From positions 3,109 through 67,108 of the IMG/VR virus record IMGVR_UViG_3300046779_001541: a stretch of 64,000 nucleotides of DNA. One strand, given 5' to 3'. The notes under the pieces were generated by a model. It saw nothing but the letters and a program-made list of their open reading frames with translations. It was not told where the DNA came from and made no database searches. Positions 8,234 to 38,934 of this stretch are shown in pieces (positions within the stretch are counted from its first letter, which is position 1; each line of letters starts with the position of its first letter). This DNA comes from a virus. Its lineage: Duplodnaviria; Caudoviricetes. A program made the position numbers and the translations under genes.

Positions 8234-9672
<1,439 letters not shown>

Positions 9673-9673
<1 letters not shown>

Positions 9674-11688
9674 TATGGAGTACCTCCATCAAGAGTGTCT
9701 ATCCACTCGTAGTCATAATCATTGTCACTGGCTTTAACTAATATCTGACCAGTAGTTCCGCCTGGAGGTGCTCCAGCGCCTGTAGGCCCCTGAAGTCCTG
9801 TCGCGCCAGTTGGACCTGTAGGACCCTGGATACCTTGCTCGCCCTGCTCGCCAGTTGCACCAGTTGGACCTGTAGGGCCCTGAATGCCCTGATCGCCAGT
9901 TGCACCAGTTGGACCAGTAGCACCAGTTGGACCAGTCGCTCCAGTGGGGCCAGTAGGCCCTGTTTCTCCTTGAATACCCTGCTCGCCCTGCGGGCCAGTA
10001 GGGCCTAAGTCTGTTGTAGCTACTTCAATCCAGAAGTTATCATAGAAAATGTAGAATTTAGCAGTCGATGTGTTGAACCACGCATCTCCTTCTGCTGGTG
10101 ATGACGGCGGGGTGTCGCCCAGAGTGTATGTGCCCTGTGGACCAGTCGCTCCAGTCGGGCCAGTCGGTCCAGTAGGACCCTGAATACCCTGAGCTCCAGT
10201 TGGTCCAGTAGGCCCCTGAGGAACCACAAAATCTATGGTTTGGTTAGGGGCATCACCAGATATTGTGACTTCAGCATCGCCACCAGGCTCGGAAGCTGAG
10301 ACAGTGCCTACGGTCAACTCGTTGGCTGCACCTGTAGGACCTAAAGCACCTGTTGGACCAGTTGGGCCTAAGGCACCAGTTGGACCCGTCGGTCCTGTCG
10401 GACCTACTTCACCCTGAGGGCCAACAATCTGACCTGCATCAGTCCACTCAGATCCGCCCCAGACCCAGAGATTTCCGTCAGCATCTACGATATAGGCATC
10501 ATTTATTTCGGAGGATTCAGGTAAATCTTCTACTGTAGATACTGACCCGATAAAGTTGATGTTAACACCCTGTGGACCAGTAGGGCCTAGTGCACCAGTT
10601 GCACCAGTAGCACCAGTTGGACCGATTCGGTTAGCGCTTACTTCGACCCAGGTATTGTCCAGCCTCATGAAGAACAGACCGCTAGTTGAGTCAAACCAAC
10701 CATCGCCCTCTTCGGCACCTAGTGGCGGGGCTGTAGCTACTTCAAAATTTCCATCAGCACCTGTAGCGCCTGTGGCACCTATAGGACCAGTAGCTCCAGT
10801 TGGGCCAACTAGACCAGTTAAACCCTGAGAACCCGTCGGTCCAGTTGGACCTGTTGCACCAGTTGCACCAGTGGCACCTGTTGGACCTGTAATAGACAAA
10901 CCAGCAACACCCTGCGCACCAGTTGGACCTGTTGCACCAGTTGCACCAGATGCTCCAGTAGGTCCTGTTGCGCCAGTCGCGCCTACAAGGCCAGCAACAC
11001 CCTGCGGTCCCGTTGGTCCTACTGCGCCTTGAGTACCAGATTGCCCCTGAGGACCTGTTGGACCTGTAATAGACAAACCAGCAACACCCTGCGCACCAGT
11101 TGGACCTGTTGCACCAGTTGCACCAGTTGGACCTGTTGCACCAGTTGCACCAGTTGGACCTGTTGCACCTGTTTCACCGTCCGCGCCGTCGGAACCGTCT
11201 ACACCATCACTACCAGCAGGGCCAGTAGCACCTGTTGGTCCAGTAGCACCTGTTGCGCCAGTTGCGCCAGTAGGCCCTGTAATGCTCAAACCTGCCGCAC
11301 CAGCAGCACCAGTGGCACCTGTTGGACCTGTCGCACCAGTTGCACCAGTGGCACCTGTTGGACCAGTAATAGATAAACCAGCTGAACCTTGCGGTCCAGT
11401 TGCACCAGTAGCACCTGTTGGACCTACGGAACCAGTTGCACCAGTTGGGCCAGTAATAGATAGGCCAGCAATACCTTGAGGACCAGTTGCACCAGTTGGG
11501 CCTGTAGGACCAGTGACTGTGCTAGCAGCACCAGTTGGACCAGTTGCACCAGTTGGACCTGTTGCACCAGTTGGACCTGTAGAGCCTGTTGGGCCTCCAG
11601 CTGGACCTGCAGGACCAGTTGGACCAGCTGGACCTTGAGGTCCTGGCCCCTTTACATCTACATATGCAAAGTTATCGGAAAGCGCCAT
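9673..11688 (-). CDS. Collagen-like fibre protein
   Basis: G-X-Y tracts, two P....EGD.WF..... globular inserts, and C-terminal [22 protein letters not shown]. Confidence 0.9.
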
Positions 11689-12062
11689 TACTTGGTTACC
11701 TCAGCCCTTACAATAAATTTCCCCTGAATAATTCTGGTAGTTTCACTAGTAGGAGACTCTACTTCCAGATCGTAGACATACGACTTAGGGGCATAGTCTG
11801 CCATATCTGCTGGAGGTATCAGTAGGGTAATTGTGCCTGCTGTCTCGTTAACTGTTAGATACCCGTTTTCAGTTGTATATTCTGATACCACTACTAGCTC
11901 TGGGTCTCTAGTTGTAGAGTCCCAATCCCGTACTTGCATACGTGCTGTATAGTCTGTCAATGGTATAGCCCTACGAGCAGAGGTTTTTATGCCAAATACT
12001 TGGTGTACAGTCGAGCCCTGATCCACGATCAGATTATGCACGTTGCCTCGTATGTGGCTCAT
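11688..12062 (-). CDS. Ig-like fibre adaptor (BppU/LtfC-like), paralog of 28388..28750
   Basis: DQGST...YTARMQVR...TTENG...YVYDLE...[13 protein letters not shown]. Confidence 0.65.
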
Positions 12063-12129: not shown

Positions 12130-12867
12130 TTAGTACCCTCCCTGAGAACTTCCAGATTCTAGGGGGTGATTGCCAGAGGCTAGCTGCTCTTTCCAGTCTT
12201 CCTGCATCTCTTTCTGCTGCTCTCGGACCTTCTCGATTTCCTGCTCCCACTCCTTCATTCGCTCCTCGGAGTAGGTTGACTCGGCGTAGTCCCAGAAGGC
12301 CCCGATGGTGTGTCTGGTAGCCCCCTTAACTACGGTAACCTCGTGCACATTATTGATACCACCAGGAAAAGTAACTAATTGGCGAGCCTTTGGCTTTAAT
12401 TTGATCGTGTGGTCGCGGAAGTTCAACTCCCCACCCTCATAGTCATCGTTGATGTATAGAAGGCAGACTAGTTTACTCTTCTCCCATGCTGAAGGATTCC
12501 CGTCCATGTCGGTGTTATCTGAGTGAAATGGAGCAAACGCCCCTACTTGCCACTTCTGAGCGTGGGATGAGACAGACTTAACTGGACGCTGGTGAGCATC
12601 TTCCACTGCCTTGTGCATGCGCTCTGCCAACTTACCTAAATAGTCAGTAGGGAGTCCGTACTTCTCCAGCAATGGGTCTTCTGGCATAATGCTCATGCCG
12701 TATGACTCAAAGAATGCTGACATGCTCCATGGCTGCTCTGGGTCCTCGAAGAATGCAATAATTTTTGCGCCATCTTCCTCGGAGATAAAGTTGTCGTAGA
12801 AGATGATGTCGTCTTTTAGGTAACCCTTATCACCAAACTCAGTTGGTGTCGTCTCAGTGTTGGTCAT
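12130..12867 (-). CDS. Fe(II)/2OG oxygenase, prolyl 4-hydroxylase-like
   Basis: FHSD...LYINDDYEGGEL...NVHEV...RHTI (HxD...H...R). Confidence 0.9.
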   Translation of the reverse strand: MTNTETTPTEFGDKGYLKDDIIFYDNFISEEDGAKIIAFFEDPEQPWSMSAFFESYGMSIMPEDPLLEKYGLPTDYLGKLAERMHKAVEDAHQRPVKSVSSHAQKWQVGAFAPFHSDNTDMDGNPSAWEKSKLVCLLYINDDYEGGELNFRDHTIKLKPKARQLVTFPGGINNVHEVTVVKGATRHTIGAFWDYAESTYSEERMKEWEQEIEKVREQQKEMQEDWKEQLASGNHPLESGSSQGGY

Positions 12868-13330
12868 TAGTCTCTCCTGTATATCCTAGGTTTGTTAGGA
12901 AACGGTCTACTTGAAATCTTTGGTTATCCTTTGAGAATAGCTTAGCAAAGTCATAGACCAATTTGTTATAAGAATCGCTATCCATCTTGCTGCTGGCCTC
13001 GCTGAGAATTATAGCAGCTTCATGGTACTGCTCTCTATGAAACACGCACTCGCCTCCCCTAGGTCTGCGAAGCACTTTGCTGTGAACCCTACCAGTTGGT
13101 TCGTACAGCTCGACAGTCAAGAAATCCTTAGCGAATCCCCAGTCAGTGTAGGCTGCATATCCAGTAGCGGCGTCTATTGCATCGCCATAGAAGTAGATTG
13201 ATCTCGCTGGTTGCTCGCCATCTCGTGCGACAGTCAACATGTAAGAGTCTGCTGTCTTATCGGCTACTCTAGATTTGTATTGAGCCACCATATCTACATG
13301 TTCATTTTTCAATTCACTCATATTATTCAC
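12854..13330 (-). CDS. Hypothetical protein within the oxygenase block
   Basis: 158-aa ORF overlapping both neighbours; no recognisable motif. Confidence 0.55.
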   Translation of the reverse strand: MNNMSELKNEHVDMVAQYKSRVADKTADSYMLTVARDGEQPARSIYFYGDAIDAATGYAAYTDWGFAKDFLTVELYEPTGRVHSKVLRRPRGGECVFHREQYHEAAIILSEASSKMDSDSYNKLVYDFAKLFSKDNQRFQVDRFLTNLGYTGETNDQH

Positions 13331-14204
13331 CGCCTGGGTTCGTATACATGCTGTTATCGTAGACTTTTGGTCTAATGCCTATTCCAGTGAACTTACGCTG
13401 ACCTGCACTAAATCCCCCCATAACCGCGTGGTACATTCTAAATAAATCTACTACAAGCAAGTCACCTTGCTGCCAGTGTTGTGAGTACCTAATTGATGTA
13501 TTTTCATTTAAATTATCTTTAAGCATAGCTAGTAGTTCATCTAATCTAGCTATCTGCTCTTCAGTGGCTGGTGCTCCAGCATACGTGTGCAGCTTTGGCA
13601 TAGCGTAGCTCCCTTGGTCAGTCTCTACTCTAAGTAGAGGTAGACCAGACACTGGATGCGCGTCTACTACTTTTGTGTAAAATGGGCCCTTACCGTGTGG
13701 AGCTGGTTTATCCCAAACGACTATCGAATTAGCTAGAAATTCTCTGTCGTTTTCGCTATACAGACCATACAGCTCTATAGAGTCTACGAATCTAGTATCC
13801 CCCGAGCCATTTGGTCCAGTGAATGTTGTCATATTCCATATACCAGCAAGGATTGGGTGCACATAATACACTTGCTCGATATGCCAGTCGAGCACGTATT
13901 CGTCATTTGTCTGCGTGTACTCTTTATCTGGGTTATCTGAGTGCCCGCCTTGGTATATCGATGTGTCAATAGTGGACTGAGGGGCATCAGAGGCAAAATT
14001 CCAAGAATATATGTCACCTAGGTTTTGTGTGAATAGTATCTGATCCTCTAAAGAAAGCTCGGCTCCTCTAAGTACTAAAACACCGTCTGAGTTAAATGCG
14101 CTGACTACGCTAGGCAGTTTAGATATGGCATCTTCTATTGAAGTTATCTCTATGACTGTTAAAGATTTTTCTACATTGTTAGATTTCACTGTGATTGTAG
14201 TCAT
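13323..14204 (-). CDS. TauD/TfdA-family Fe(II)/2OG dioxygenase
   Basis: GVLVLRG, DWHIEQ (HxE), GDTRFVD, HPVSG, WQQGDLLVVD...YHA...R. Confidence 0.85.
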   Translation of the reverse strand: MTTITVKSNNVEKSLTVIEITSIEDAISKLPSVVSAFNSDGVLVLRGAELSLEDQILFTQNLGDIYSWNFASDAPQSTIDTSIYQGGHSDNPDKEYTQTNDEYVLDWHIEQVYYVHPILAGIWNMTTFTGPNGSGDTRFVDSIELYGLYSENDREFLANSIVVWDKPAPHGKGPFYTKVVDAHPVSGLPLLRVETDQGSYAMPKLHTYAGAPATEEQIARLDELLAMLKDNLNENTSIRYSQHWQQGDLLVVDLFRMYHAVMGGFSAGQRKFTGIGIRPKVYDNSMYTNPGGE

Positions 14205-15051
14205 CTTTCAACTCTCCAGACTCTAGTAGGCTGTAGTACTCTTCTATCGTCATGCGCATTCTCATGTATGGTTCCATAATTTTTAAATCATGGCGGCGCT
14301 TCCTCTGACGTTCCATCTCTTCAAATTTGTCACCATATTTTTCGTTTAATGCATGCCATACAGGAGTGCCTTCGAACTCATACATCCAGTAAAGTCTAGT
14401 TATATACTTTGGAGCTCCATATATTCTTTTAACGCCGTGATAGTACGGGTGCCCAGACGGAAATACTACTAAATCTCCAGCTTTAGGTTTATATTCAAAC
14501 TCCTTGGCTATCTTTCCGTCGGCGATAACGCGAAATGCGATCTCTCCACCTTCATAATCATCATTAGGGTAGAGAACTCCAGTTATGCCAAATTTATCTC
14601 CAGGACCATCAGCGTCTTCTGGCATATAGTCACTGTGATAGTTCATGGTCAAGTTCTCATCGCCATTTAGATTCTCGTCTGGGATATATCTAGCTAGGCC
14701 CCAGGGTTGGCAGGACCAGTTAGGCAGTGGCTTACCTGTATATTCTACGTAAAACTTAGTAGCTAGGTGGAATGCCTTAGCTACTTCTAAGAAATATTTA
14801 TCAGATCCAACTTCTCGTTCCGCTGACTTTGCCACTTCTAGCCACTCATCCCAGGTCGGTAGGTGCGGGTGGCTCCTAAATGAGTGTACTCGGCTATCTA
14901 TTTGTCGGCCGAATCCATACCAGCCGCGCCACTCTCCAAACTCTTCGTAGTAGTCTATGTAGTCATCTGGGTCAGATAGTACATTATGGAAGACAATCAC
15001 GTTGTCGTCTAAAATCTCTACATTAGGGTCATCTACTGTATAGTCTTTCAT
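14179..15051 (-). CDS. Fe(II)/2OG oxygenase, P4H-like
   Basis: YHSD...YPNDDYEGGEI...PKAGDLVVFPS..YYHGV...KY. Confidence 0.9.
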   Translation of the reverse strand: MKDYTVDDPNVEILDDNVIVFHNVLSDPDDYIDYYEEFGEWRGWYGFGRQIDSRVHSFRSHPHLPTWDEWLEVAKSAEREVGSDKYFLEVAKAFHLATKFYVEYTGKPLPNWSCQPWGLARYIPDENLNGDENLTMNYHSDYMPEDADGPGDKFGITGVLYPNDDYEGGEIAFRVIADGKIAKEFEYKPKAGDLVVFPSGHPYYHGVKRIYGAPKYITRLYWMYEFEGTPVWHALNEKYGDKFEEMERQRKRRHDLKIMEPYMRMRMTIEEYYSLLESGELKDDYNHSEI

Positions 15052-15060
15052 TGTTATCCC

Positions 15061-15708
15061 TTAAATTGTTAGATCTAGTAGGTTTTTTATTGGCATATGC
15101 ACGTGGGTAATTATTGTTTTTCTGCCGCTAATTAGTGGCCTTGACTCATGCAAGTATCCCGACGGGAAAACTACTACGCTACCTGCTTTATTCTTTATCG
15201 AGATATCTAAGCCAGGTTGAACTATACCCAATTCCCCGCCTTCGTAGTTATCGTCCAGGTAGACGGCTATGGTTATAGTGTCCCTATCTGGTACAACCAT
15301 ATCGGTGTGTGGTCCCATGTCTTTGTTTTCATCGTACCTACGAATTCCATAGGTGTGGGATCCAAATATTTCTCTATGAAGATGTTCTATTTCCGAATCA
15401 TCCGCGCCCTGTGCTTTTAGATATAGTGCTGTGCATGCTTCCATTGCTCCCAGGATGGAGGTCAATACGTATTCGGACTTGTCTCTAACTAAAGGGTCCG
15501 CTTCCAACTCTAAATCTGGATAACTTAAGGTTTTAAGGTCTCCGTAGGGGTTCTCTTTAGAGTTATTATTTGCGTACCAGACTTCCCATGGGGTCACGGA
15601 TAGACTATTAACTTCCTCTAGGGTAGCCATTACATTGTCTATTTCCGAGATCGCGCCTGGGAAGTAGTAGACATTTCTATGTAGTACTTCGTGAACTAAC
15701 TCAGACAT
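15061..15708 (-). CDS. Fe(II)/2OG oxygenase, P4H-like
   Basis: PHTD...YLDDNYEGGEL...VVFPSGYLHES...GRK. Confidence 0.9.
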   Translation of the reverse strand: MSELVHEVLHRNVYYFPGAISEIDNVMATLEEVNSLSVTPWEVWYANNNSKENPYGDLKTLSYPDLELEADPLVRDKSEYVLTSILGAMEACTALYLKAQGADDSEIEHLHREIFGSHTYGIRRYDENKDMGPHTDMVVPDRDTITIAVYLDDNYEGGELGIVQPGLDISIKNKAGSVVVFPSGYLHESRPLISGRKTIITHVHMPIKNLLDLTI

Positions 15709-15711
15709 ATG

Positions 15712-16497
15712 TTAGTCCTCGTCTAGATACTTTGTAGGCCCAGCGTTAACGTCTTTGTATGCTGAACCAGCATTGAACTTCTCTCGTGACTCTGGGTCAT
15801 TAGGGTCAAACTCTGGCTGAAAAATAAATCCAGGGAACATATACTTATCCCCGCTCTTCATTACGTGAACCTGGTGCTTATACGGGTGTGTAGATGGGAA
15901 GATTAGCGCCTGGCCCGCCTTTGGCTTAATGGTGAAGTCAACTAATTCAGCGTTTGATGGGTCATTTACATCGTCAGCTGGACGTAAGTGCCCATTCTTA
16001 GGATTGCGAAGATCATATGGTCTAATGATAAACGACAATTCTCCGCCGTCATAGTCATCATTGAGATACACAACAATAGACCACTTGATACTTAGATCTC
16101 CAGCTTGAGCGTCAAAGTGCGCGCCCATGGCACAGCCAGGGCGGTACTTCATTACACCAGCAAAGGGGGAGACATTTGGCTCTCCCTCTTCACCGTGATC
16201 TTCATAGAATGCAGCCGAGATCTTCTCCACTGCGCCCCTAATTTGGCCAACTACCCAGCGTACATCATCTGCTCTGTCTGAGACTAGATCATCGAGTGCA
16301 TCTAGATTAAAGTCTTTCTTACTGCCAAAACTGTGACCGTCCTGAGTATTAGAGAACCAGAAACCCCATTCTGGGATTACTGATTGAACTGACTCGTCTT
16401 CATCTAATTCCTCGATTAAGCGGACTAACCTCTGAGGGTCATCTAGAACCTCGCTATATAGGTACACATTCTCGTGAAGCTTTTTCTCTAAATACAT
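15712..16497 (-). CDS. Fe(II)/2OG oxygenase, P4H-like
   Basis: AHFD...YLNDDYDGGEL...PKAGQALIFPSTHPYKHQV...GDKY. Confidence 0.9.
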   Translation of the reverse strand: MYLEKKLHENVYLYSEVLDDPQRLVRLIEELDEDESVQSVIPEWGFWFSNTQDGHSFGSKKDFNLDALDDLVSDRADDVRWVVGQIRGAVEKISAAFYEDHGEEGEPNVSPFAGVMKYRPGCAMGAHFDAQAGDLSIKWSIVVYLNDDYDGGELSFIIRPYDLRNPKNGHLRPADDVNDPSNAELVDFTIKPKAGQALIFPSTHPYKHQVHVMKSGDKYMFPGFIFQPEFDPNDPESREKFNAGSAYKDVNAGPTKYLDED

Positions 16498-16503
16498 AAT
16501 TTC

Positions 16504-17283
16504 CTACTCGAACTGCCATAAAGGGGTAGAGTCTTGGATGGCGTTGGCATTTACCATCCATCTTTTTACATCAGGACCTATCGGTGTAACCCAGTGCTCG
16601 TACGGGAACGCGCAAGGGAAAATAACAACATCTCCAGCTAAGGGCTTGTGCGAGGCTTCGGTAGAGCCTGACTCTACATATTTGCCGTCTTCACCTTTAG
16701 CGTAGCGCCTAACGGTTATCTCTCCGCCATCTCCGTAATCATCATTCAAATATAGATTGTATGCAAATGTCTGATTGGCAATATCGTGATCTTCTTTTGC
16801 GTCTTGATAGCCCCAGTCGCCATTTGGGTGTAGGTGTAGGTGCCCCGAGTAGTCTGAGTGTGGTCCTACTCCCTGCGGTCCTTGGTAATACCTAAACTCT
16901 AGAGGAGCATGTTGGATAATGTTTATATCTAACTGCCAGCGTGCTTTGTAGTCATCTACAACTTCTTCGAACATCTGAAGAAGTTTAATCATAGGCTCGT
17001 AGGCCGTGTCGTCAATTTTAGGGTTAGGATATCTAGCTTTGAAATCTTTAAAAATAGGTCCGCCCAGGATCGACTGATCTAGATCTCTAGGGTTTCTGTA
17101 GTATTCCAGAAGGGGCCTGCGACGTAGCCCGTCCTGGTCTTCCCATTCTTCAGCTGGAGCTAGAAGATATCCGTCACCGTGCGGAGCGGTGTAAAATGAA
17201 TCTATAAGTGCCGAGCAATCTTCTCTAGGGAATACGCCTTCATAGACAGTTACATACTTTAGGATGTCTTTAGCTGAGTTCAC
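16504..17283 (-). CDS. Fe(II)/2OG oxygenase, P4H-like
   Basis: PHSD...YLNDDYGDGGEI...VIFPCAFPYEHWV...KRW. Confidence 0.88.
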   Translation of the reverse strand: MNSAKDILKYVTVYEGVFPREDCSALIDSFYTAPHGDGYLLAPAEEWEDQDGLRRRPLLEYYRNPRDLDQSILGGPIFKDFKARYPNPKIDDTAYEPMIKLLQMFEEVVDDYKARWQLDINIIQHAPLEFRYYQGPQGVGPHSDYSGHLHLHPNGDWGYQDAKEDHDIANQTFAYNLYLNDDYGDGGEITVRRYAKGEDGKYVESGSTEASHKPLAGDVVIFPCAFPYEHWVTPIGPDVKRWMVNANAIQDSTPLWQFE

Positions 17284-17962
17284 TGGAATCCCCTGATTTG
17301 TGGCTTTTTATGGTCCAAAAGAATGGACACACGTATCTAATTCCAGATCTAATCTCTGTAACCCCGTGAATGTAGTGCATGTCGCCTGGGAAGAAGTATG
17401 CTGCTCCAGCTTTTGGCTTAAACTGAATTCCCTGATTAGGGAAGTAAAGTTCTCCACCCTCGTAATCATCGTTGATATAGAAAAGACCAGCGATGTCGTA
17501 GTACGGGAAGTCATTCGGCTTTCCGCGACCTTCACCTTCGTGCAGCTCTTTGTCAGCATGCGGCTGTTGACGCTGCCCAGGTAGCCATCGGACAATAGCT
17601 GGGCTGGTAGCGTGAGCGTCTACATTAAAAAATGCGTCTACTTTTTCCTTTAAACGAAGCTGCATCCCTACGATAATCTCTGAAATCCTAGGGTCTACGC
17701 TGTCCAATGTTGGAGTTGTAGCCACTCGGTGGTCCCAGTAGCCAGAATCGTAGATGACAGTACCGTCTTCGTTATAGTGGGTCTCTGTCTTATCCCAGGT
17801 CTCGTTTGTCTTAGCGAACTCCGTCAAAATACGGAGCTCTTCCTCGGTCATAAAATCTTCAAGTGCGACAATATTGTCAGCGGAGTCGCCGAAAAACCCT
17901 GATGGAGTTATGGACTCGTAAGGGCGTTCACTACTATTTGTGACGTTTTCTGTCATTGCCAT
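17270..17962 (-). CDS. Fe(II)/2OG oxygenase, P4H-like
   Basis: PHAD...YINDDYEGGELYF...PKAGAAYFFPG...YIHGV...RY; TAGGAT lies 6 nt before the ATG. Confidence 0.9.
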   Translation of the reverse strand: MAMTENVTNSSERPYESITPSGFFGDSADNIVALEDFMTEEELRILTEFAKTNETWDKTETHYNEDGTVIYDSGYWDHRVATTPTLDSVDPRISEIIVGMQLRLKEKVDAFFNVDAHATSPAIVRWLPGQRQQPHADKELHEGEGRGKPNDFPYYDIAGLFYINDDYEGGELYFPNQGIQFKPKAGAAYFFPGDMHYIHGVTEIRSGIRYVCPFFWTIKSHKSGDSSELS

Positions 17963-17976
17963 AGGACTATCCTACC

Positions 17977-18726
17977 CTACTCGTACTTACGTCTTTCCCA
18001 GACTTCGCGCTGATACACGCCGCCATCTGGCATGCGATACTTAGCACTATTTTCCTGGTTTTTCTGCATCATTTCCATTGGATTGAAACTAGTTACAACC
18101 TCTGATTCCCAATTTTCGCGTTTAAATGGGAGAATCTGAGCGTAAGGAGTCCCAGCTGGAATAACTCCAGTGAACCCTTTAGCAATAAAAAACGGCATAG
18201 TCCCTGGCAAGTGGACTTTATCGTTGTCGATAATCCCGCTTGTAGTTAAAAAGGGCAGCTCAAATCGGTTAAACGGCTGAGTATAGAGCGCGCTATATCC
18301 AGCTGGAAGCTCTACAGCCCAGTCTGACCACCATGCAAAGTGCTTCTGGTGATACCCCAGAGGGTGCTCAAACTGAGGCATTGGCATTCTGTCTTGAATA
18401 AAGTCTTTGTTCTTTTCATCCAAAACTTTTGCGTGAATATTTCCAGTGGAGTCTTCATAGAACTCTATGTCACACGGGGTCTTATACATATACCCGCTAC
18501 CCATAATGTCATATACAGCGGGGCAAGCCTTCCAAGTCGGGACTTTACCGCCTCCGTTTGGCATCTCCCAGGCTTTGCCAGTCATAGGGTTCATGGCAAA
18601 TCTATCGGCATTCCTATACCAATCTGGAATGGTTTTCAAAGCTGGCCCTGGCTTGGATGGGCTTTCGTCATTCAACCATGGGCGATTTACAACAAATTTA
18701 GCTTTCTGAGTGTCCAGTTGACTCAC
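17977..18726 (-). CDS. Conserved phage hypothetical protein, DUF6065-like
   Basis: TWKACPAVYDIMGSGY...P.GYS.L...P.NR...PF....G.ID.D...GTP.AQ.LPFKRE. Confidence 0.55.
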   Translation of the reverse strand: MSQLDTQKAKFVVNRPWLNDESPSKPGPALKTIPDWYRNADRFAMNPMTGKAWEMPNGGGKVPTWKACPAVYDIMGSGYMYKTPCDIEFYEDSTGNIHAKVLDEKNKDFIQDRMPMPQFEHPLGYHQKHFAWWSDWAVELPAGYSALYTQPFNRFELPFLTTSGIIDNDKVHLPGTMPFFIAKGFTGVIPAGTPYAQILPFKRENWESEVVTSFNPMEMMQKNQENSAKYRMPDGGVYQREVWERRKYE

Positions 18727-19468
18727 CGTCTTCCTCTACCTCGTAGCTTTGACCAGTGAACGGGCAAGTCACGGTTTTCAGTTTAATTGATTTAGTTTCG
18801 TGCTCTCCCACTGAATCTCCTCTGTAGTCAACGGCATCACGGTACATCTTTGACCAGTCACCAACCCCGTTTTTTATTTCTTGAATGTCACCATACTTAC
18901 GGACTTCTTGCCAATACTCTTGCTCTGGTAGCCCCTCTATAATTTCCATCTCGTATGATTCTTGTAGATCAGTCAGAGATATAGGTAGAACTGCAGCAAT
19001 AGGAGTCCCAGCTGGAATATGTATCTCTACATTTGGCTCGGTTAGTCGCCAAGCTAGAGGTAGCATATGTATATAAAAAGAAGTGCTAATCAGCGTAGTG
19101 TAGCACTGGGCCCCTCGCACAAACAGGTTCGGAACTGGCATTGCCATCATTGATGTCTTTTCATCAGAAATGAATCTAAGACCAGTGGTGAAGCTGATAG
19201 TGGCGTTTCCTCTGCCAGTATTGAGGAATTGATGACCTTCTAGTATTGTCACGTGATCTGGCGTAGTGTCTGTCACGCCGTCCCAAACAAATCTGAGGTC
19301 TTCTGGAAAGGAGATCCCCCAGCCTAGGCGATTAGTCAAATTTAGGGGGAAGCACATGTAGGCGTGCTTATCCGCTGTCTCATCCATCCAATCTCTACGC
19401 GCAGTTAGTTGGTCTAGATTTGCAACCTTACCTTCTGGAAAAAGTTTTTGTACCTGTATTTTAGGCAT
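18698..19468 (-). CDS. DUF6065-family protein
   Basis: RRDWMD...HAYMCFPL..TN.LGW...G.ATI.F...P.N...GTPIAA..P. Confidence 0.65.
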   Translation of the reverse strand: MPKIQVQKLFPEGKVANLDQLTARRDWMDETADKHAYMCFPLNLTNRLGWGISFPEDLRFVWDGVTDTTPDHVTILEGHQFLNTGRGNATISFTTGLRFISDEKTSMMAMPVPNLFVRGAQCYTTLISTSFYIHMLPLAWRLTEPNVEIHIPAGTPIAAVLPISLTDLQESYEMEIIEGLPEQEYWQEVRKYGDIQEIKNGVGDWSKMYRDAVDYRGDSVGEHETKSIKLKTVTCPFTGQSYEVEEDGESTGHSES

Positions 19469-20250
19469 TAGTTTTCAGATTCCTCGTAGATGTCTGGTCT
19501 GTGATACTTCTCTGAATAGTCCAGCATAGTCACCATCGAGTACTTAACTCCAGACTTTACTGGCATAGCGCGGTGAGGATACATGAAGTTGGACGGAAAT
19601 ACGTAAACGTCTCCAGCTTTAGCCTTCACCTGAGCGTTCTGTAGTCTAAAGAAAAGCTCTCCGCCTTCATAATCATCATTCGGGAATCCAACAAGAGACA
19701 CTACGCAGTTATACGAGTAGCCGTGGTCGTGGTGCTCCTGAAAGTGTTGACCTTCCCCGTATCGCACGTAGTTAGTTGCTTCCCAGTAGCGAAGTTCACC
19801 GATGTTATAACGACGAGTATAATCCTTAACTACCTGAAGTTCTCGGTATGTCACATCATCTGCTAGCTTCTTGAGAATTTCCCCCGCCTCTGAGTTATCT
19901 TGTTCGATGTCTGTTTTCTTATATTTAAAATCTACGCAGTCTCTATACTCAGGCATCTTCATCTGATATCCAACCATAGCTTCGCGCCAGTCGTAATCAT
20001 TAGATGGGTCGTCTATTACAGACTCTAGGCGCTTAATTATGTCCAGATTAGTTGGCAGAACGTCTCGGTAGACCCAGATGCCACTTCCTGGCACAACTTC
20101 TTGACATGATGACCATGTCTGCTCTTCGATGGTGTACCACTTAACTAAACGATTGTGGATATTCTGCTGCTCTTGCTTACCTTTTTGGTCAATAGCGGCG
20201 TCTGCTTTTTGCTTTTCTTGTAGCTCTTCAGCTGTCAATTCCTGGGCCAT
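19468..20250 (-). CDS. Fe(II)/2OG oxygenase, P4H-like
   Basis: EHHD...FPNDDYEGGELFF...FPSNFMYPHRAMPVKSGVKY. Confidence 0.9.
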   Translation of the reverse strand: MAQELTAEELQEKQKADAAIDQKGKQEQQNIHNRLVKWYTIEEQTWSSCQEVVPGSGIWVYRDVLPTNLDIIKRLESVIDDPSNDYDWREAMVGYQMKMPEYRDCVDFKYKKTDIEQDNSEAGEILKKLADDVTYRELQVVKDYTRRYNIGELRYWEATNYVRYGEGQHFQEHHDHGYSYNCVVSLVGFPNDDYEGGELFFRLQNAQVKAKAGDVYVFPSNFMYPHRAMPVKSGVKYSMVTMLDYSEKYHRPDIYEESEN

Positions 20251-20258
20251 TTTTATCC

Positions 20259-20990
20259 TTAGTACTTTAGTTTGTAATCTTCAACAACTTGGGAGACTCT
20301 TTGGTTGACACCATCTCTGTCGTGGTAGTCAGTCATAACTACAACTGCATATTTAGTGCCACTAATCATTTCTTTAGATGCGTGTTCATAGATGAATGTA
20401 GACGGGAATACAGCAATATCGCCCTTCTTTGGTTTCAACTCTACACCGAATCTAGGGAACCACAATTCCCCGCCCTCATAATCGTCATTTAGATATATGA
20501 CAGCCGAGATGGTGGCCACATAAGTCGGGCCGTGATCAGCGTGAATCCTAAACTGCGTGCCAGCGCCTTCGTACTTGACAAAGTTGAATGCTTCATAGGC
20601 TCGAATACCTACTCCCCAATAGGCTCCATAATCATCAACGCACATCCGTAGCCGCTGGAAAATTTCTTCGTGAATACTGTACAGCTCAGAATTCTCTACG
20701 GTCTTTGGCCCTAAGTTGTTGCTGGAGACTTTAAAATCCTGGGCATTTCTTGCGTATGAATCTACATCAGATGAGTTAGTGACTTTTGCGCCTTGCCATT
20801 GAAACTGCATATCGCCATTTAAATTTCGCTCTAATGTCTCGATATATCTGTCGCAGTCGGCAGCTGGGATGGCATTGCGATATACGTTAATCCCTAGGGC
20901 TGGATTTAAAACTGACATTGGCCCTAGCTGTCGATCTGCCATGCGAGTACTCGCGGTCTCTGATCTATCTTTTGTGAACCAGTTATTCAT
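20259..20990 (-). CDS. Fe(II)/2OG oxygenase, P4H-like
   Basis: IHAD...YLNDDYEGGELWF...FPSTFIYEHAS...GTKY. Confidence 0.9.
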   Translation of the reverse strand: MNNWFTKDRSETASTRMADRQLGPMSVLNPALGINVYRNAIPAADCDRYIETLERNLNGDMQFQWQGAKVTNSSDVDSYARNAQDFKVSSNNLGPKTVENSELYSIHEEIFQRLRMCVDDYGAYWGVGIRAYEAFNFVKYEGAGTQFRIHADHGPTYVATISAVIYLNDDYEGGELWFPRFGVELKPKKGDIAVFPSTFIYEHASKEMISGTKYAVVVMTDYHDRDGVNQRVSQVVEDYKLKY

Positions 20991-21015
20991 AGTAGCTTTA
21001 TCCTACTACACATTT

Positions 21016-21058
21016 AAAAAGAAAAGCGGCTAGATTTCTCTAGCCGCTACTTCTTTTT
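21016..21058 (-). terminator. Intrinsic terminator after the PPFF gene (possibly bidirectional)
   Basis: 10-bp stem AGCGGCTAGA/TCTAGCCGCT, a GAAA loop on the minus strand, and T-rich runs on both sides. Confidence 0.8.
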
Positions 21059-21063
21059 GAGTC

Positions 21064-21987
21064 CTACTTATCTTCGTCCTCTTTAAGCTCTTCCCATGCT
21101 TCCCATGGGATTGAGTATGAGAAGTACGGTGGGAAGAACGGTGGGAAGAACGGTGGGAAGAACGGTGGGAAGAAAGGAGGGAAGAATGGGAAGAACGGTG
21201 GGAAGAACGGTGGGAAGAACGGTGGGAAGAAAGGAGGGAAGAATGGGAAGAATGGAGGGAAGAAAGGAGGGAAGAATGGGAAGAATGGAGGGAAGAAAGG
21301 AGGGAAGAATGGGAAGAACGGTGGGAAGAACGGTGGGAAGAATGGAGGGAAGAAAGGAGGGAGAGTCGTTACTGGTGCGCTGGGTGTTCCAGCTGAAGTC
21401 CCGTTCTCGTTGACTAGATAGACTGTATAGCTTTGGCTAGTGTCTCCTACTTCAGATACACCCATTGGGTTATTGGCCAAGTTGATCTGCCCTGGTTGAG
21501 TGATCTGGTCTGTAGATATAGCGTACCTGCCAGTAATAGCCTTACCGCCAGTTTCGCCTTCTGCCCAAGATATAGTGTCAACATTAGCTGTTGTAGATGT
21601 GACCACTACGCTCAATGGGGCTTGAGGCACTGTTGTAGCTGTAACAATAGACGAAAGCGCTGAGTCTGAGTCACCTGAAGCATTTGATAATACAACAGAC
21701 GCTTTATACTCTTGATTCGAATTCAATCCAGTAACAGTTACACTGTACACGCCTCCGCTAGGAGTTGGAAGTGCTCCAGTAGATAAACTAGATAGCCCGA
21801 TTGAGTCAGTTATGGTGTAAGAAGTGGCCTCGGGTGATAGTTCATTTATCGTCCATGTGACAACTATTGCACCATCATTGTATGGGCGATTTGTACCAAC
21901 ATCTGTAGCCGTAACGTTTTCTGGTGCTAACGGTTCTAAGAAGTCATTTTGCTGGGACGAACGTCCACCAGCCTCTTTCTTTGCCAT
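21064..21987 (-). CDS. FN3-domain protein with a C-terminal (PPFF/PFF)n repeat and acidic tail
   Basis: Two FN3-like modules, then 16 PPFF + 4 PFF + 1 PPYF units (80 aa), then SYSIPWEAWEELKEDEDK. Confidence 0.85.
   Translation of the reverse strand: MAKKEAGGRSSQQNDFLEPLAPENVTATDVGTNRPYNDGAIVVTWTINELSPEATSYTITDSIGLSSLSTGALPTPSGGVYSVTVTGLNSNQEYKASVVLSNASGDSDSALSSIVTATTVPQAPLSVVVTSTTANVDTISWAEGETGGKAITGRYAISTDQITQPGQINLANNPMGVSEVGDTSQSYTVYLVNENGTSAGTPSAPVTTLPPFFPPFFPPFFPPFFPFFPPFFPPFFPFFPPFFPPFFPFFPPFFPPFFPPFFPPFFPFFPPFFPPFFPPFFPPFFPPYFSYSIPWEAWEELKEDEDK
21121..21362. repeat. 12/9-bp degenerate tandem repeat encoding PPFF/PFF
   Basis: Plus-strand units such as ggtgggaagaac, ggagggaagaaa and gggaagaat; the strand is almost all purine. 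Confidence 0.9.
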
Positions 21988-22006: not shown

Positions 22007-24526
22007 TTATGCTGTCAAATCACCGTACATGTACCATAGGTCAGCGCTACGCTTAATTATAGTACAAGATGACCACTGGGTTCTGAGCTTGTTGCCAGGG
22101 GTGTAACGTAGGGTTACGCCTGAATCTGGAGCAATTGTCACCTGACCTGATCCAGTCTGAACAATATCCATAGACGCGCCTACTGGCCAAGCCAAAGAAG
22201 CGTTCGTTGGAATTGTGAAAGTAGTCGCGGAGGAGCTGTTCATCTCTATTACGTTATCCTTGTGAGCAAGGGTGTCTAGCGTGTAGTTTGCAGTCTTTTC
22301 GGTGAATGAAGTAAGAGATGCAACACCAGCAGAAGTCTGAGTTGTCCCATCGACAAATGTAACTGAGGCCGCGGTCATGTTAGTTGCAGTTAAATCTGCA
22401 ACGGCCACGTCTGCTAATGCAAAAGTGTTGTCTGAAGTGTCTATAAATACTGAACTGTCTGGTTCAGGGACGTAACCGTCAAAGAACTTGAACACACCAT
22501 CAGTCGCGTCACGGAACATACCAGCGTGAGCATAGGTGCCATTAGCATAACGACCAGCTGCCCAACCGAGGTCTGGGTTAGTGTGAACCTTACCGCGAGC
22601 AGTTCCACCGCTAACGTAAGTGTCTGTTACAGTGCTAGCTACAGTAAAGGTGTTTTCAGTAACTGCAAGAATCTCTAAACCAGTTGAGTTTACGTCGAAC
22701 GAGCTAGGAGTTACACCTGAAACAGTAACATAATCTCCAGCATCATAGCCATGGGCTTCTGTAGTTGTGTAGATTACGTTAGTCCCATCACCAACTGCGC
22801 CAGACAGGGTCGAGAGTCCAGCGTTATTCAAGTAGATCATGTTGTCTTTGACCTTCAGGTCAGACGCAGATACTGTGGTTGTAGTTCCTTGAACAATTAA
22901 GTTACCAGTGACAACTAGATCAGCTGTCTCTACCTCGCCAGTAAAGACTGGGCTAGATAGGTCAGCTTTTAGGTCTAGTGCTGTCTGTACAGCATTGGAT
23001 ACTGGCTTATCTAGATCAGTGGTGTTGTCGACATCCCCTAAACCAACCATTGCAGCTGTAATACCAGAAACTGTTCCAGTGAAAGTCGGGTTAGCGATAG
23101 GTGCCTTGCCGTCTAACTGGTTTTGTACGTTAGATGTCACAGTGCTTATGTAGCCAAGTTCAGTGGCAGATACGTCACCAATAGTAGTATCTGATGGTAA
23201 TGCAACTGTCCCCGTGAAAGTAGGGCTGGCAATAGGTGCATATGTAGTTGAAGCAACAGAGCTTGCAAGCTTACCGTCAATTTGAGCTTGAATATCAGAT
23301 GTGACGTTAGCTAGTGTGGCCAAGTCTGCAGCAGATACATCTCCAATAGAGGTTGTTGCAGGTAGAACTACAGTTCCCGAGAATGTTGGGTCAGAGAGAG
23401 GTGCGTACCCCATCTCTAGATCTGTCACATAAACTAAATTAGCTGTGTTAGAGATGCCGTGGACATCTAAAGTTGTATCAGCATGTGCAGTTAGATCGCT
23501 CTGGGTGACTAGCTCTGCTGTATCTGCAATACCGTGCACATTCTGAGTGTTCTCATTGTGGGATTCGATAGCTGTAGATACTTGTGATGTTAGCTGAGTT
23601 GTAGTCACTAGCTCTGCTGTATTAGCTATACCGTGAACGCTAAGAGTGTCTGCCGCGTGATCTGAAAGATCTGTCTGATAGACGAGGTTGGCTGTGTTGG
23701 AGATACCGTGAACGCTAAGGGTGTCTCCTGTGTGATCCGAGAGATCACTCTGGTAAACAAGATTAGCCGTGTTCGAGATCCCGTGAACATCGGTATCTTC
23801 GGCAGCGTGTTCAGTGACTAACTGATAGGTGTAGTCTCTACCGATAAAAGCAAGATCATTGTAGTTAGTTATTCCGTCACCAATTTTTGCAAATGTCCTG
23901 TTAGTGTCGCTCTCCACGTAGATGGTGTTTGCGGTAGTTACGGCATTTGCTTGTGAGAGATTCGTAGATGTGTCAATTATAAAACTTAGCTTGCCCGCTA
24001 AAGCTGTTGTAATAGTGGTTGCATAGTTAGGGTCATCACCAAGTGCGGCAGCTAATTCATTTAAAGTGTCAAGCGTACCAGGAGCTGAGGCAACTAAATC
24101 TGCAATAGCGTTGTCGACATATGCAACTGCGTTTGCCTGAGCGTTATTAGCCTTTGTCTGAGCACCTGACGTTGTTTCTAATACAGAGGTGTCAGCAATG
24201 CCGTGAACATTTGTGGTCAGGTCAGAGTGCGTGTCAAGTGCTGTAGAAATGGTGTTAACAAAATCTGGATCATCACCAATAGAGGCCGCTAGTTCAACTA
24301 GAGTATCTAGGTCAGAAGGGGCTAGCCCGACTACACCCTCTACAGCAGCTTCGATATCGGCCTGAGTGACGCCAGCGTACGATAATGTAGTCCAGTCCGT
24401 AGTGCCGTCACCAAGCTTAAACTTAGTGGTGTCGGTCTCGTAACCTAGCTCACCAGCGGCTAGCGTTGGATTAGCTGAGGTCCATTCAGCGGCGGTACCG
24501 CGTCTAAATTGAATTCTGACTGCCAT
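22007..24526 (-). CDS. Tail/virion fibre with Mtd-N-like N-terminus and His-containing repeats
   Basis: RRGTAAEWTSANPTLAAGELGYETDT.KFK.GDG, six H-x6-VHGI-x-(N/D)T repeats, LDTL.ELAA motifs, and a C-terminal domain ending WYMYGDL. Confidence 0.8.
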   Translation of the reverse strand: MAVRIQFRRGTAAEWTSANPTLAAGELGYETDTTKFKLGDGTTDWTTLSYAGVTQADIEAAVEGVVGLAPSDLDTLVELAASIGDDPDFVNTISTALDTHSDLTTNVHGIADTSVLETTSGAQTKANNAQANAVAYVDNAIADLVASAPGTLDTLNELAAALGDDPNYATTITTALAGKLSFIIDTSTNLSQANAVTTANTIYVESDTNRTFAKIGDGITNYNDLAFIGRDYTYQLVTEHAAEDTDVHGISNTANLVYQSDLSDHTGDTLSVHGISNTANLVYQTDLSDHAADTLSVHGIANTAELVTTTQLTSQVSTAIESHNENTQNVHGIADTAELVTQSDLTAHADTTLDVHGISNTANLVYVTDLEMGYAPLSDPTFSGTVVLPATTSIGDVSAADLATLANVTSDIQAQIDGKLASSVASTTYAPIASPTFTGTVALPSDTTIGDVSATELGYISTVTSNVQNQLDGKAPIANPTFTGTVSGITAAMVGLGDVDNTTDLDKPVSNAVQTALDLKADLSSPVFTGEVETADLVVTGNLIVQGTTTTVSASDLKVKDNMIYLNNAGLSTLSGAVGDGTNVIYTTTEAHGYDAGDYVTVSGVTPSSFDVNSTGLEILAVTENTFTVASTVTDTYVSGGTARGKVHTNPDLGWAAGRYANGTYAHAGMFRDATDGVFKFFDGYVPEPDSSVFIDTSDNTFALADVAVADLTATNMTAASVTFVDGTTQTSAGVASLTSFTEKTANYTLDTLAHKDNVIEMNSSSATTFTIPTNASLAWPVGASMDIVQTGSGQVTIAPDSGVTLRYTPGNKLRTQWSSCTIIKRSADLWYMYGDLTA

Positions 24527-33128: not shown

Positions 33129-33452
33129 GTGACTTCAAAAATAAGTATTCCAAATCTAGTTCCAGACTTTATTTTTGAAGAAATGCCTAACTGTGCTTCT
33201 GCTGACCCAGAGCTATTTTTCCCTCAGGAGAACGAAATCTACCCTGGAAAAATTATCTCTAAATATATTGACATAGCTGCCGCTAAGAGGATTTGTTCCG
33301 ACTGCCCTATAAAACTTCAGTGCCTGGAATATGGACTAAAGAACGCAGAAATAGGCATCTGGGGCGGAATGACTGAGTCTCAGCGGGAGACTCTTAGAAA
33401 GCTAAATAAAACCCCGCTTAGCCGTAAGCAGCCAACTCCGACTACCTGGTAA
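33129..33452 (+). CDS. whiB: WhiB-family transcription factor
   Basis: CASADPELFFP...ICSDCP...C...GIWGGMTE.QR. Confidence 0.93.
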   Translation: MTSKISIPNLVPDFIFEEMPNCASADPELFFPQENEIYPGKIISKYIDIAAAKRICSDCPIKLQCLEYGLKNAEIGIWGGMTESQRETLRKLNKTPLSRKQPTPTTW

Positions 33453-35785: not shown

Positions 35786-36373
35786 CTACTCCGCGATGAA
35801 GTCTAGCCATATGTCTTCATCGTATGGCCGATCTAACTCAAAGTTTCTGAAGAAGATAATCACATTGGTGCGCTTTCCGCTGAGCACCTCTCGAACTCCG
35901 TGAAGATTTTCGGCATTCCCTCTAAACATGATTAAATCTCCAGCCTCTAATCTGACTTCAACCCCGTGGTGTTCGAAATACAGCTCTCCGCCAGAATAGT
36001 CACTGTTAAGCATCAAAATACAGGAGTAATGCTCTTCTATTGTCATCTTCCCTGGATAAACATCCCCGTCATCGTCGTGAGGCTTATTTATTGCGCCCGT
36101 ATCCATAATGTTTCCGAACAACCTTTTTAATTCAAATCGGTTGTAGGTGAAAGTGTAGTTTTCTTTGAATGTTTTGTTAGCTACCTTTAAGGCTCTTCTT
36201 ATGGGTGCCACTTCGGATGGTACATCTCCAGCTAAAATGTCGTACAAAAGAATGCCAGAATGCCTATAATTATCACGGTGGTCCGCTTGAGAGTTACTGT
36301 CTATGTACCTTGCCAGAGCGGCACACTCTTCTTCAGATAGAACATTTTTCTCTAAGTAATATATCTCTGGCAT
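35786..36373 (-). CDS. Fe(II)/2OG oxygenase, close paralog of 39512..40066
   Basis: PHDD...MLNSDYSGGELYF...NLHGV...GKR. Confidence 0.9.
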   Translation of the reverse strand: MPEIYYLEKNVLSEEECAALARYIDSNSQADHRDNYRHSGILLYDILAGDVPSEVAPIRRALKVANKTFKENYTFTYNRFELKRLFGNIMDTGAINKPHDDDGDVYPGKMTIEEHYSCILMLNSDYSGGELYFEHHGVEVRLEAGDLIMFRGNAENLHGVREVLSGKRTNVIIFFRNFELDRPYDEDIWLDFIAE

Positions 36374-38355: not shown

Positions 38356-38934
38356 ATGCCACTAAAAGAGCTAGTAAAAGATCGACTCTGGGAGTATGAA
38401 AACTTTCTCTCCAGCGAAGAAGTTGACCTACTACTAGATTTGGCTTCTAATGCATCAGAAGAAGATTGGTACTCTGCTGACCTAAACCCTCATGATGGGC
38501 ACTATAGGGGTAAATCGCTAAGTTTTAATCCAAACAGCGTAGTTGGTAGAAAAATACTAGAAATAGATGGAAGAATAGCTAGCATATTCTCAGACTTTAC
38601 TAATATAGTTCAAATTGGCTCTATAGTGCGTAATACAGATACTCTAATGCCTGTTGGCCTTCACAGGGACAACGAGGACGAGAATATGGTAGATAACCGA
38701 AATGCCTACTGCAAGTATGGCATTCTTATGTATCTAAATAGTGACTTCGATGGCGGAGAAATTTGCTACCCTGAATACAACATCGCGTATAAGCCAAAAC
38801 GAGGTGTCCTGATTATTCATCATGCTGGAAATATGCATGGAGTTAACCCTGTCAGCGGTGGCACTAGATACTCCATGACCTCTTTTGTCTGGGGGCTAAA
38901 CGCGGCTATCGCTGCGCCGTATGTTCCTGTTTAG
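38356..38934 (+). CDS. Fe(II)/2OG oxygenase, tandem paralog of 38967..39530
   Basis: LHRD...YLNSDFDGGEI...NMHGV...TRY. Confidence 0.9.
   Translation: MPLKELVKDRLWEYENFLSSEEVDLLLDLASNASEEDWYSADLNPHDGHYRGKSLSFNPNSVVGRKILEIDGRIASIFSDFTNIVQIGSIVRNTDTLMPVGLHRDNEDENMVDNRNAYCKYGILMYLNSDFDGGEICYPEYNIAYKPKRGVLIIHHAGNMHGVNPVSGGTRYSMTSFVWGLNAAIAAPYVPV

Follow-up and report, generated by a model that had tools for sequence, protein, structure and literature searches.

Aquatic phages carry large and divergent sets of 2-oxoglutarate (2OG)- and Fe(II)-dependent oxygenases, and the chlorovirus PBCV-1 combines an enzyme of prolyl 4-hydroxylase (P4H) fold with non-collagen, Pro-rich repeats of its own, which have been proposed as its substrates. 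Pro-rich repeats that are hydroxylated at many sites, and often glycosylated, form structural and adhesive polymers such as the plant extensins and arabinogalactan proteins (AGPs) and mussel foot protein 1. Proposed roles of the 2OG-Fe(II) oxygenases of aquatic phages include the control of 2OG levels, DNA repair and secondary metabolism (PMC3037559, PMC9602691, PMC2938197), and gp41-gp54 of Synechococcus phage Syn9 were described in 2010 by Iyer, Abhiman, de Souza and Aravind as a tandem dioxygenase array (PMC2938197). In the Skp1 pathway, the transferase Gnt1 adds N-acetylglucosamine (GlcNAc) to a hydroxyproline of Skp1 after the action of PhyA (PMC3515798). Here we report a computational analysis of a 64,000-nucleotide (nt) stretch of viral DNA (hereafter referred to as the window), comprising bases 3109-67108 of the 67-kb IMG/VR virus record IMGVR_UViG_3300046779_001541 (completeness ~51% by CheckV), in which a gene encoding two FN3 domains and a (Pro-Pro-Phe-Phe)n tract (the repeat gene) is followed by a block of 12 genes rich in such oxygenases. 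We give an even chance to the reading that the Pro/Phe tract is hydroxylated on proline by a core of two oxygenase subfamilies, O0 and O1, and DUF6065 proteins, with the accessory paralogues extending the chemistry or the substrate range.

The minus strand carries the whole set, consisting of fibre genes, the repeat gene, a hairpin, the 12-gene enzyme block, a fibre-assembly-like gene and collagen genes. The block comprises genes for eight PF13640 P4H-like oxygenases, one TauD-like oxygenase, two DUF6065-type proteins and one protein of unknown family; its intergenic gaps are no longer than 14 nt, or the genes overlap. It is flanked on the same strand by tail-fibre genes (upstream) and collagen-like genes (downstream), and thus lies inside the fibre module. 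An earlier note, written from the DNA letters, had described an FN3-PPFF gene, a terminator and a packed same-strand block of eight P4H-like enzymes and one TauD-like enzyme in the fibre region, with two DUF6065-like genes and one unknown among them. Each of these features is present at the positions given here, the composition of the block being confirmed by Pfam, PHROG and hhalign. The repeat gene, the hairpin and the recurrent part of the block are arranged as follows.

21064-21987, minus strand: FN3-FN3-(PPFF)21 protein of 307 residues with an acidic C-terminal tail (fn3 Pfam match), the candidate substrate.
21121-21362, minus strand: repetitive DNA that encodes the Pro/Phe tract, with ~21 copies of a 12-nt unit and a higher-order period of 57 nt.
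21025-21048, minus strand: terminator-like hairpin between the repeat gene and the enzyme block (10 bp, 6 GC, then a T-run).
20259-20990, minus strand: O0-type P4H-like oxygenase, the first gene of the block (PF13640 E 1.2e-10; H150-x-D152...H203...K213).
19468-20250, minus strand: second O0-type P4H-like oxygenase (PF13640 E 5.7e-12; clusters with 20259-20990).
18698-19468, minus strand: DUF6065 protein, a-type (PF19541 E 1.4e-24; dUTPase-like fold; invariant Tyr37, Cys39 and Pro41).
17977-18726, minus strand: DUF6065-like protein, b-type (phrog_7084 E 5.6e-33; hhalign probability 89.6% to the DUF6065 profile; no Pfam match).
17270-17962, minus strand: O1-type oxygenase (PF13640; H135-x-D137...H199...R209).

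Related loci were collected with two independent seeds. A degenerate DNA pattern for (PPFF)3 retrieved at least 120 stretches from IMG/VR, and a hidden Markov model (HMM) built from the oxygenases of the window identified 343 oxygenase open reading frames (ORFs) in 92 loci; this count and those in the next sentence hold among the (PPFF)3 matches listed. An oxygenase is encoded within 2.5 kb downstream of 50 of the 60 repeat genes having at least 3.5 kb of downstream sequence, whereas one is encoded upstream of only 1 of the 38 having at least 3.5 kb of upstream sequence, and PF13640 is found in 41 of 45 PPFF-bearing records of at least 30 kb, usually in 6-13 copies. For the converse set, a DNA pattern for the DUF6065 motif KHAYxCFP yielded 110 new loci, picked regardless of the repeat. 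In 50 of the 58 loci whose first DUF6065 gene has at least 3 kb of sequence upstream, a strict PPFF gene lies upstream on the same strand; three others carry PFFPxFC variants, three have hexapeptide repeats of the form (S/A)PPxFF with a Hint domain behind them, and only two are without a Pro/Phe-repeat gene (~96% with one). The co-occurrence across freshwater phages that the earlier note had asked about is thus strongly positive in both directions (50/60 vs 1/38 from the repeat, ~56/58 from DUF6065).

The core, consisting of the repeat protein, O0, O1 and DUF6065, is kept in at least four gene orders: PPFF-O0-O0-D6a-D6b-O1, as in the window; PPFF-O0-D6b-O0-D6a-O1; PPFF-O1-x-O1-O10-O0-D6a; and a form with O1 inverted, in which the repeat resides on a small protein without FN3 domains. 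Since the records of the inverted-O1 form are only 16-35% complete at 32-73 kb, the respective genomes would be near 200 kb, and the DUF6065a proteins in these loci share 23-28% identity with that of the window. That the neighbourhood persists despite rearrangement, a different carrier protein and deep sequence divergence speaks for a functional link between the repeat and the enzymes.

In the window, the Pro/Phe tract is composed of 16 PPFF, 4 PFF and 1 PPYF units (~80 residues, nearly all P and F), and its Pro codons vary along the DNA repeat. Orthologues of the repeat protein are encoded in >100 IMG/VR loci, including most of the (PPFF)3 matches, and share a conserved N-terminus (MAKK.GR.SQ..NDFL.P), two FN3 domains and the Pro/Phe repeat, followed by variable C-termini (an acidic tail, as in the window, PPxFK, a Cys-rich tail or a Hint domain). 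We found no link between PPFF repeats and phages in the literature searched. Hairpins similar to that of the window follow 24 of 105 repeat genes (23%) and occur in 46 of 651 random windows (7%); a conserved terminator behind the repeat gene as a general feature was therefore rejected, hairpins being enriched, not universal.

The tract occurs in several variant settings. In nine loci (L014, L041, L051, L075, L099, L119, L167, L199 and L232), it is directly followed by a Hint/intein-like domain with the motifs Cys-Ile-x-Glu-Asp/Asn-Thr ... VVHN or AYNGC; autoprocessing by this domain would leave the Pro/Phe polymer as an activated C-terminus. A cysteine variant of the repeat (PFFPxFCP / PxFCPxFC) heads the same enzyme block in L158, L192 and L213. 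In the rearranged form with genomes near 200 kb (L047, L069, L081, L088, L096, L126, L127, L067, L008 and L062), most of the small PPFF ORFs lack a start codon close to their 5′ end, and an ATG straight after the stop codon of the fibre gene opens an ORF of ~22 codons, relative to which the PPFF frame is +1. The zone of overlap is conserved (GTA GCN GCN CGG A..) and contains a candidate programmed +1 frameshift site at Ala-CGG, resembling the Ty3 site.

The eight PF13640 proteins of the block score 32.7-46.9 bits against a gathering cut-off of 27, and all eight, when read directly, have an HxD...H iron triad followed by a distal Lys or Arg. In 2OG oxygenases, this distal residue binds the C5 carboxylate of 2OG. 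The ligands H150, D152, H203 and K213 in O0 and H135, D137, H199 and R209 in O1 are invariant across 34-35 orthologues; the distal residue is thus Lys in O0, as is typical of collagen-type P4Hs, and Arg in O1. The TauD-like protein matches positions 29-264 of the 267-position PF02668 profile and, by reading, offers HSD at 88 and HIE at 108 as candidates for the first motif, with more His residues downstream. The intact Hx(D/E)...H ligands that the earlier note had ascribed to every oxygenase of the block are accordingly present in all eight PF13640 proteins, with candidate ligands in the TauD-like protein.

The predicted model of O0 (pLDDT 83), the one oxygenase modelled, resembles P4Hs that act on proteins: its top 50 Foldseek matches in the PDB are all protein prolyl 4-hydroxylases, with no TET, JBP or AlkB structure among these 50. 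The best match is 3gze, the Chlamydomonas P4H in complex with a (Ser-Pro)5 peptide (rank 1, E 9e-11; TM ~0.55-0.7 among the matches), and the others include PHD2 with HIF peptides, PBCV-1 vCPH, the Pseudomonas putida P4H with EF-Tu and the Bacillus anthracis P4H, the last of which is also the nearest solved relative by sequence (E 6.5e-5). Searches of NCBIfam and of PDB sequences returned only sub-threshold or weak matches for the block proteins and for a glycosyltransferase encoded in relatives (see below), and several oxygenases of the window have weak, sub-threshold Tet_JBP matches. A complex prediction of O0 with residues 198-245 of the repeat protein, run without controls, gave a score of 0.00 and weighs neither way.

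The paralogues represent conserved subfamilies, not recent duplicates. O0, which includes the first two oxygenases of the window, has 107 members in 74 loci and O1 has 80 members in 74 loci, and O2, O3, O4, O8 and O11 are patchy across related loci. The accessory genes complete the block in the window.

16504-17283, minus strand: accessory P4H-like oxygenase, subfamily O11 (PF13640 E 8.8e-9; 4 loci only).
15712-16497, minus strand: accessory P4H-like oxygenase, subfamily O3 (PF13640 E 4.5e-11; 21 loci).
15061-15708, minus strand: accessory P4H-like oxygenase, subfamily O8 (PF13640 E 5.2e-10; 8 loci).
14179-15051, minus strand: accessory P4H-like oxygenase, subfamily O4 (PF13640 E 7e-8; 18 loci).
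13323-14204, minus strand: accessory TauD/TfdA-type oxygenase (PF02668 E 5.7e-23; homologues in only 6 related loci).
12854-13330, minus strand: 158-residue protein with no family above threshold, a recurrent block member (homologues inside the block in 10 related loci).
12130-12867, minus strand: accessory P4H-like oxygenase, subfamily O2, the last gene of the block (PF13640 E 5.5e-9; 28 loci).

Outside the block, the window encodes at least four further PF13640 oxygenases, at 35786-36373 (-), 38356-38934 (+), 39512-40066 (-) and 42280-42903 (-), and a weak further candidate at 38967-39530 (+). These genes surround a carbamoyltransferase gene (40092-41528), in a module that also holds genes for ribonucleotide reductase (RNR) and ThyX.

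The predicted model of DUF6065a (pLDDT 88) adopts a dUTPase-like barrel, with VIA-align Z scores of up to 11.1 and 12 matches at Z>=8, all of the dUTPase type; Foldseek E values against dUTPases are ~2e-4, and the identity is 10-16%. The 39-sequence consensus contains a conserved (H)-A-Y-x-C-x-P motif with invariant A36, Y37, C39 and P41, as well as the conserved residues H35, N46, D57, W62 and N114. Compared by eye with the five dUTPase catalytic motifs (e.g. G-x-I-D-x-D-Y-x-G and the C-terminal RGxxGFGSTG), this consensus has no recognisable counterpart of them. The second protein, 17977-18726, matches DUF6065 at the profile level only and is hence termed DUF6065-like. Among related loci, DUF6065a is found in 66 and DUF6065b in 43. 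No match to DUF6065a was found in cultured phages by tblastn, and no paper mentioning DUF6065 was found in the literature searched.

Beyond these phages, a DUF6065 profile search returned 2,123 clusters at 50% identity, among which bacterial proteins fuse the domain to PF13640 (four proteins), JmjC/Cupin_8 (two), TPR (two) and an Stf0 sulfotransferase (one).

Bacterial DUF6065 fusion proteins: P0242, P0250, P0197, P0231, P0225, P0266, P0190, P0230 and P0256.

One of the fusions is annotated from a Hyphomicrobiales metagenome-assembled genome and another is on a 786-kb contig. Since the oxygenase half of all four PF13640-DUF6065 fusions has O1 as its best match in the window, DUF6065 and O1-type oxygenases would appear to work together in general. 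A query with the fusion protein P0242 found no related loci in genome contigs. A scan of bacterial genomes for the DUF6065 motif identified 118 true DUF6065 loci, mostly in Caulobacterales; no conserved context was recognised in them, in a search for which the neighbours had not been annotated with Pfam. DUF6065b-type homologues (26-31% identity) are also encoded by haloarchaeal tailed viruses, namely by gene 40 of Halorubrum virus HSTV-2 (L238) and in 48 other records.

The fibre module surrounding the cassette contains the following genes, and in most related loci, too, a large fibre gene precedes the repeat gene.

24816-27185, minus strand: fibre-like structural protein of 789 residues, upstream context (PHROG tail-fibre, head-decoration and virion-structural families, E down to 2e-40).
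22007-24526, minus strand: tail fibre protein of 839 residues with an Mtd_N N-terminus, directly upstream of the repeat gene (PF18454 E 6e-16; many PHROG tail-fibre families).
11688-12062, minus strand: small fibre-assembly-like protein, downstream context (phrog_1084 / phrog_3304).
9673-11688 and 8234-9673, minus strand: two collagen-repeat fibre proteins of 671 and 479 residues (PF01391 E 2e-54 and 4e-43).

Near-identical copies of the block are present in freshwater metagenomes of several studies, and no RNA run is listed among the public runs containing the phage. An actinobacterial host would fit the phage, because two WhiB-family genes are present in the record (33183-33395, plus strand, in the window and G000:C1:1641-1832 just outside it) and WhiB genes are likewise present in three relatives (G001, G037 and G039). 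Megablast of the block against cultured phages gave no match; the best protein matches of the first oxygenase among cultured phages are cyanophage oxygenases, at <30% identity. A search for the T4 capsid protein Gp23 in five related records gave no match, as did the controls.

Relatives differ from the window in genes inserted around the enzymes. The closest long relative, L004 (124.8 kb, ~68% identity), is syntenic with the window except for two additional genes that separate the repeat gene from O0. One of these encodes a PF11397 glycosyltransferase, a family that we take to be that of Gnt1; homologues are found close to the repeat gene in 12 loci and, in part of these, including L004, separate it from O0, and no PF11397 gene is present in the 67-kb record of the window. 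The PF11397 gene is accompanied, in the interval from the repeat gene to the oxygenases, by a gene for a 264-residue protein of no known family (L004:6667-7458, with homologues in 12 other loci), which has a weak homologue in the window at 45051-45764 (+) (24% identity, E 9e-5). A radical S-adenosylmethionine (SAM)/SPASM gene (L073:9174-10172) follows a repeat protein with a Cys-rich tail, and glutathione-peroxidase-like genes lie inside the oxygenase blocks of rearranged forms (L032, L054 and L081). To judge from their families, the inserts in relatives would have protein- or peptide-directed or redox-support functions, which would be in line with hydroxylation of the repeat protein.

The earlier note had read the locus as a precursor gene followed by its tailoring enzymes. 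The recurrent adjacency of PPFF and oxygenase genes, the protein-P4H fold of O0 and the PF11397 and SPASM neighbours in relatives favour this view, whereas its narrower sense, a cluster of the type that makes ribosomally synthesized and post-translationally modified peptides (RiPPs), does not hold: the candidate substrate is a 307-residue protein with two FN3 domains, and the block contains no leader, peptidase/protease or exporter. The resemblance to RiPP clusters is functional only, with some relatives carrying a Hint domain or a SPASM enzyme. The further proposal of the note, that the hydroxyls could feed glycosyltransferases, a carbamoyltransferase and SGNH enzymes encoded elsewhere in the window, is a conjecture.

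Several observations weigh against hydroxylation of the Pro/Phe tract by the co-encoded enzymes. The note had counted the occurrence of such a block in relatives devoid of a Pro-rich repeat protein as evidence against its proposal, and one distant case exists: Syn9, whose array follows the tail-fibre genes gp32-39 and whose gp43 matches the DUF6065 HMMs, has no PFFPPFF anywhere in its 177-kb genome, so arrays of this broad type need not be accompanied by a PPFF protein. DUF6065 proteins fall into two large and 13 small groups upon single-linkage clustering at 50% identity; the loci may therefore represent one or a few deep lineages, in which case the conserved adjacency could be inherited synteny. 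Some PPFF stretches are linkers in large proteins, on fragments without oxygenases. Sequence identity to solved P4Hs is only 16-19%, too low to reveal the substrate class. Most bacterial DUF6065 genes are solitary, the phage-derived oxygenase HMM flagging a neighbour in only 2 of the 118 loci; the DUF6065b-type gene of HSTV-2 adjoins genes for thymidylate synthase and DNA polymerase, not fibres; and the DUF6065 fold itself is dUTPase-like. Finally, the substrate, the chemistry, the role of DUF6065 and the location in the virion are deduced from the conserved neighbourhood, the genes present, the domain fusions, the intact metal ligands and the similarity of folds.

These points bear differently on the alternatives. 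The oxygenases might act on other virion proteins (tail fibres, collagen-like fibres or several of these), the PPFF gene being the last gene of the fibre module, kept there by synteny, if the related loci are indeed few independent lineages. Collagen-like proteins are the textbook guess for P4H substrates, and in both the window and L004 the block has fibre genes on one side and two collagen-repeat genes on the other. However, in the 246 triplets of the window's two collagen-like proteins, Pro occupies X in 106 and Y in 1, with Thr dominating Y, and the canonical X-Pro-Gly site of collagen-P4H substrates is virtually absent. Such a pattern is typical of bacterial collagen-like proteins that are glycosylated on Thr and not hydroxylated. 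Moreover, only 14 of 45 PPFF/oxygenase records have collagen repeats that pass the Pfam cut-off, and the PPFF repeat remains adjacent to the enzymes through rearrangements and on a different carrier protein. Although the position of the Syn9 array behind tail-fibre genes, without a PPFF gene, and the prediction by Iyer et al. of collagen-like and tail-collar proteins as substrates of bacterial dioxygenases (PMC2938197) lend this explanation further weight, we consider it unlikely.

A role of the array in the synthesis or modification of a small molecule, a short or non-ribosomal peptide, a nucleotide or a DNA base, with the PPFF protein unrelated to it, appears quite improbable. It would agree with the secondary-metabolite synthesis proposed for the Syn9 array, with its Trp halogenases and dUTPase-fold Cys protein (PMC2938197), with the resemblance of the latter array's gp43 to DUF6065 and the dUTPase-like fold of that family, with the surroundings of the halovirus homologue, with the single bacterial Stf0 fusion and with the weak Tet_JBP matches. 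The top 50 structural matches of O0, however, are protein prolyl hydroxylases, none being TET, JBP or AlkB; the block contains no halogenase, non-ribosomal peptide synthetase or nucleotide-metabolism gene and lies in the fibre module, away from the RNR and ThyX genes of the other strand; and the DUF6065 consensus has no dUTPase catalytic motifs recognisable by eye. Above all, the ~96% adjacency to the repeat protein would be left unexplained. It is very improbable that the oxygenases are auxiliary metabolic genes that consume 2OG or repair DNA, without a dedicated phage-encoded substrate. Cyanophages do commonly carry several copies of 2OG-Fe(II) oxygenases (up to 24 in S-SCSM1), and roles of these enzymes tied to host 2OG levels and to cyanophage DNA repair have been proposed (PMC3037559, PMC9602691); the closest homologues of O0 in cultured phages are those of cyanophages. 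Bulk 2OG consumption, however, would need neither at least seven differentiated, conserved subfamilies in a fixed cassette nor DUF6065 partners, and the position in the structural module and the PF11397 and SPASM neighbours in relatives point to protein substrates.

Returning to hydroxylation of the Pro/Phe tract, we propose that the cassette would be a conserved late-gene unit of freshwater actinophages. The repeat protein of the fibre region would probably be made in excess over the enzymes, owing to the hairpin behind its gene, and its prolines would be hydroxylated by the co-encoded P4H-like Fe(II)/2OG oxygenases. The putative invariant core would comprise two O0 proteins, one O1 protein and two dUTPase-fold DUF6065 proteins, the latter most likely serving as oxygenase partners that could, for instance, bind or present the substrate. 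The variable paralogues (O2, O3, O4, O8, O11 and the TauD-type enzyme) may add hydroxyls elsewhere or act on other fibre proteins, and in some relatives the hydroxyprolines would probably be glycosylated by the PF11397-type transferase. A more far-reaching version, which we hold only tentatively and by analogy, is that a virion-associated protein bears a Pro/Phe polymer heavily hydroxylated at multiple sites (4-hydroxyproline, 3-hydroxyproline and possibly β-hydroxy-Phe), glycosylated in some relatives, which could form a stiff or adhesive appendage, with DUF6065 representing a new class of oxygenase partner.

If the proposal is correct, a substrate would in this lineage, for the first time, be assigned to the 2OG oxygenases that aquatic phages have been known since about 2007-2010 to carry in multiple copies. 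As the array is headed by the gene for a simple, synthesisable polymer in ~96% of informative loci of this abundant group of freshwater actinophages, the substrate question is directly testable. DUF6065, with >2,000 clusters at 50% identity and fusions to oxygenases in bacteria, would likewise gain a testable role, and a natural, enzymatically hydroxylated (PPFF)n would interest materials scientists.

A comparison with the described systems places the cassette among known types while setting it apart from each of them. The array type and the idea of a viral P4H acting on virus-encoded repeats are already known; the literature searched contains no description of the conserved PPFF partner, of the fusions between O1-type oxygenases and DUF6065 or of the PF11397 insert. 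The polymers closest in kind, those of extensins, AGPs and mussel foot protein 1, offer an analogy only, since the PPFF repeat has no sequence relationship with them, is far more aromatic and lacks their Ser, Lys or Tyr pattern. In the Skp1 pathway of Dictyostelium and Toxoplasma, the cytoplasmic P4H PhyA acts first, followed by a PF11397/GT60-type GlcNAc transferase on the hydroxyproline (PMC3515798), and in the phage relatives a PF11397 gene similarly separates the repeat gene from the genes for the P4H-like proteins, these being predicted enzymes. However, the Skp1 pathway modifies a single Pro on a folded regulator and involves no polymer, and the record of the window itself is without PF11397.

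Syn9 and the window share many divergent tandem 2OG-Fe(II) dioxygenases with a dUTPase-fold Cys protein, located downstream of tail-fibre or fibre-assembly genes. The Syn9 array additionally contains two Trp halogenases and a JmjC member of the MINA/No66 type, whereas neither family was found among the 13 genes of the block (the repeat gene included) at E values of up to 0.1. Conversely, a conserved candidate protein substrate heads the array in the window, and the enzymes are <30% identical to those of cyanophages. PBCV-1 vCPH (5c5t) shares the P4H fold and ranks seventh among the structural matches of O0, at an identity of ~16%. Unlike the window, PBCV-1 is a eukaryotic virus with one enzyme, which is not encoded adjacent to its substrates, and with PAPK or SPKPP repeats. 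In the window, by contrast, eight or more paralogues and their DUF6065 partners directly follow the gene for the PPFF polymer.

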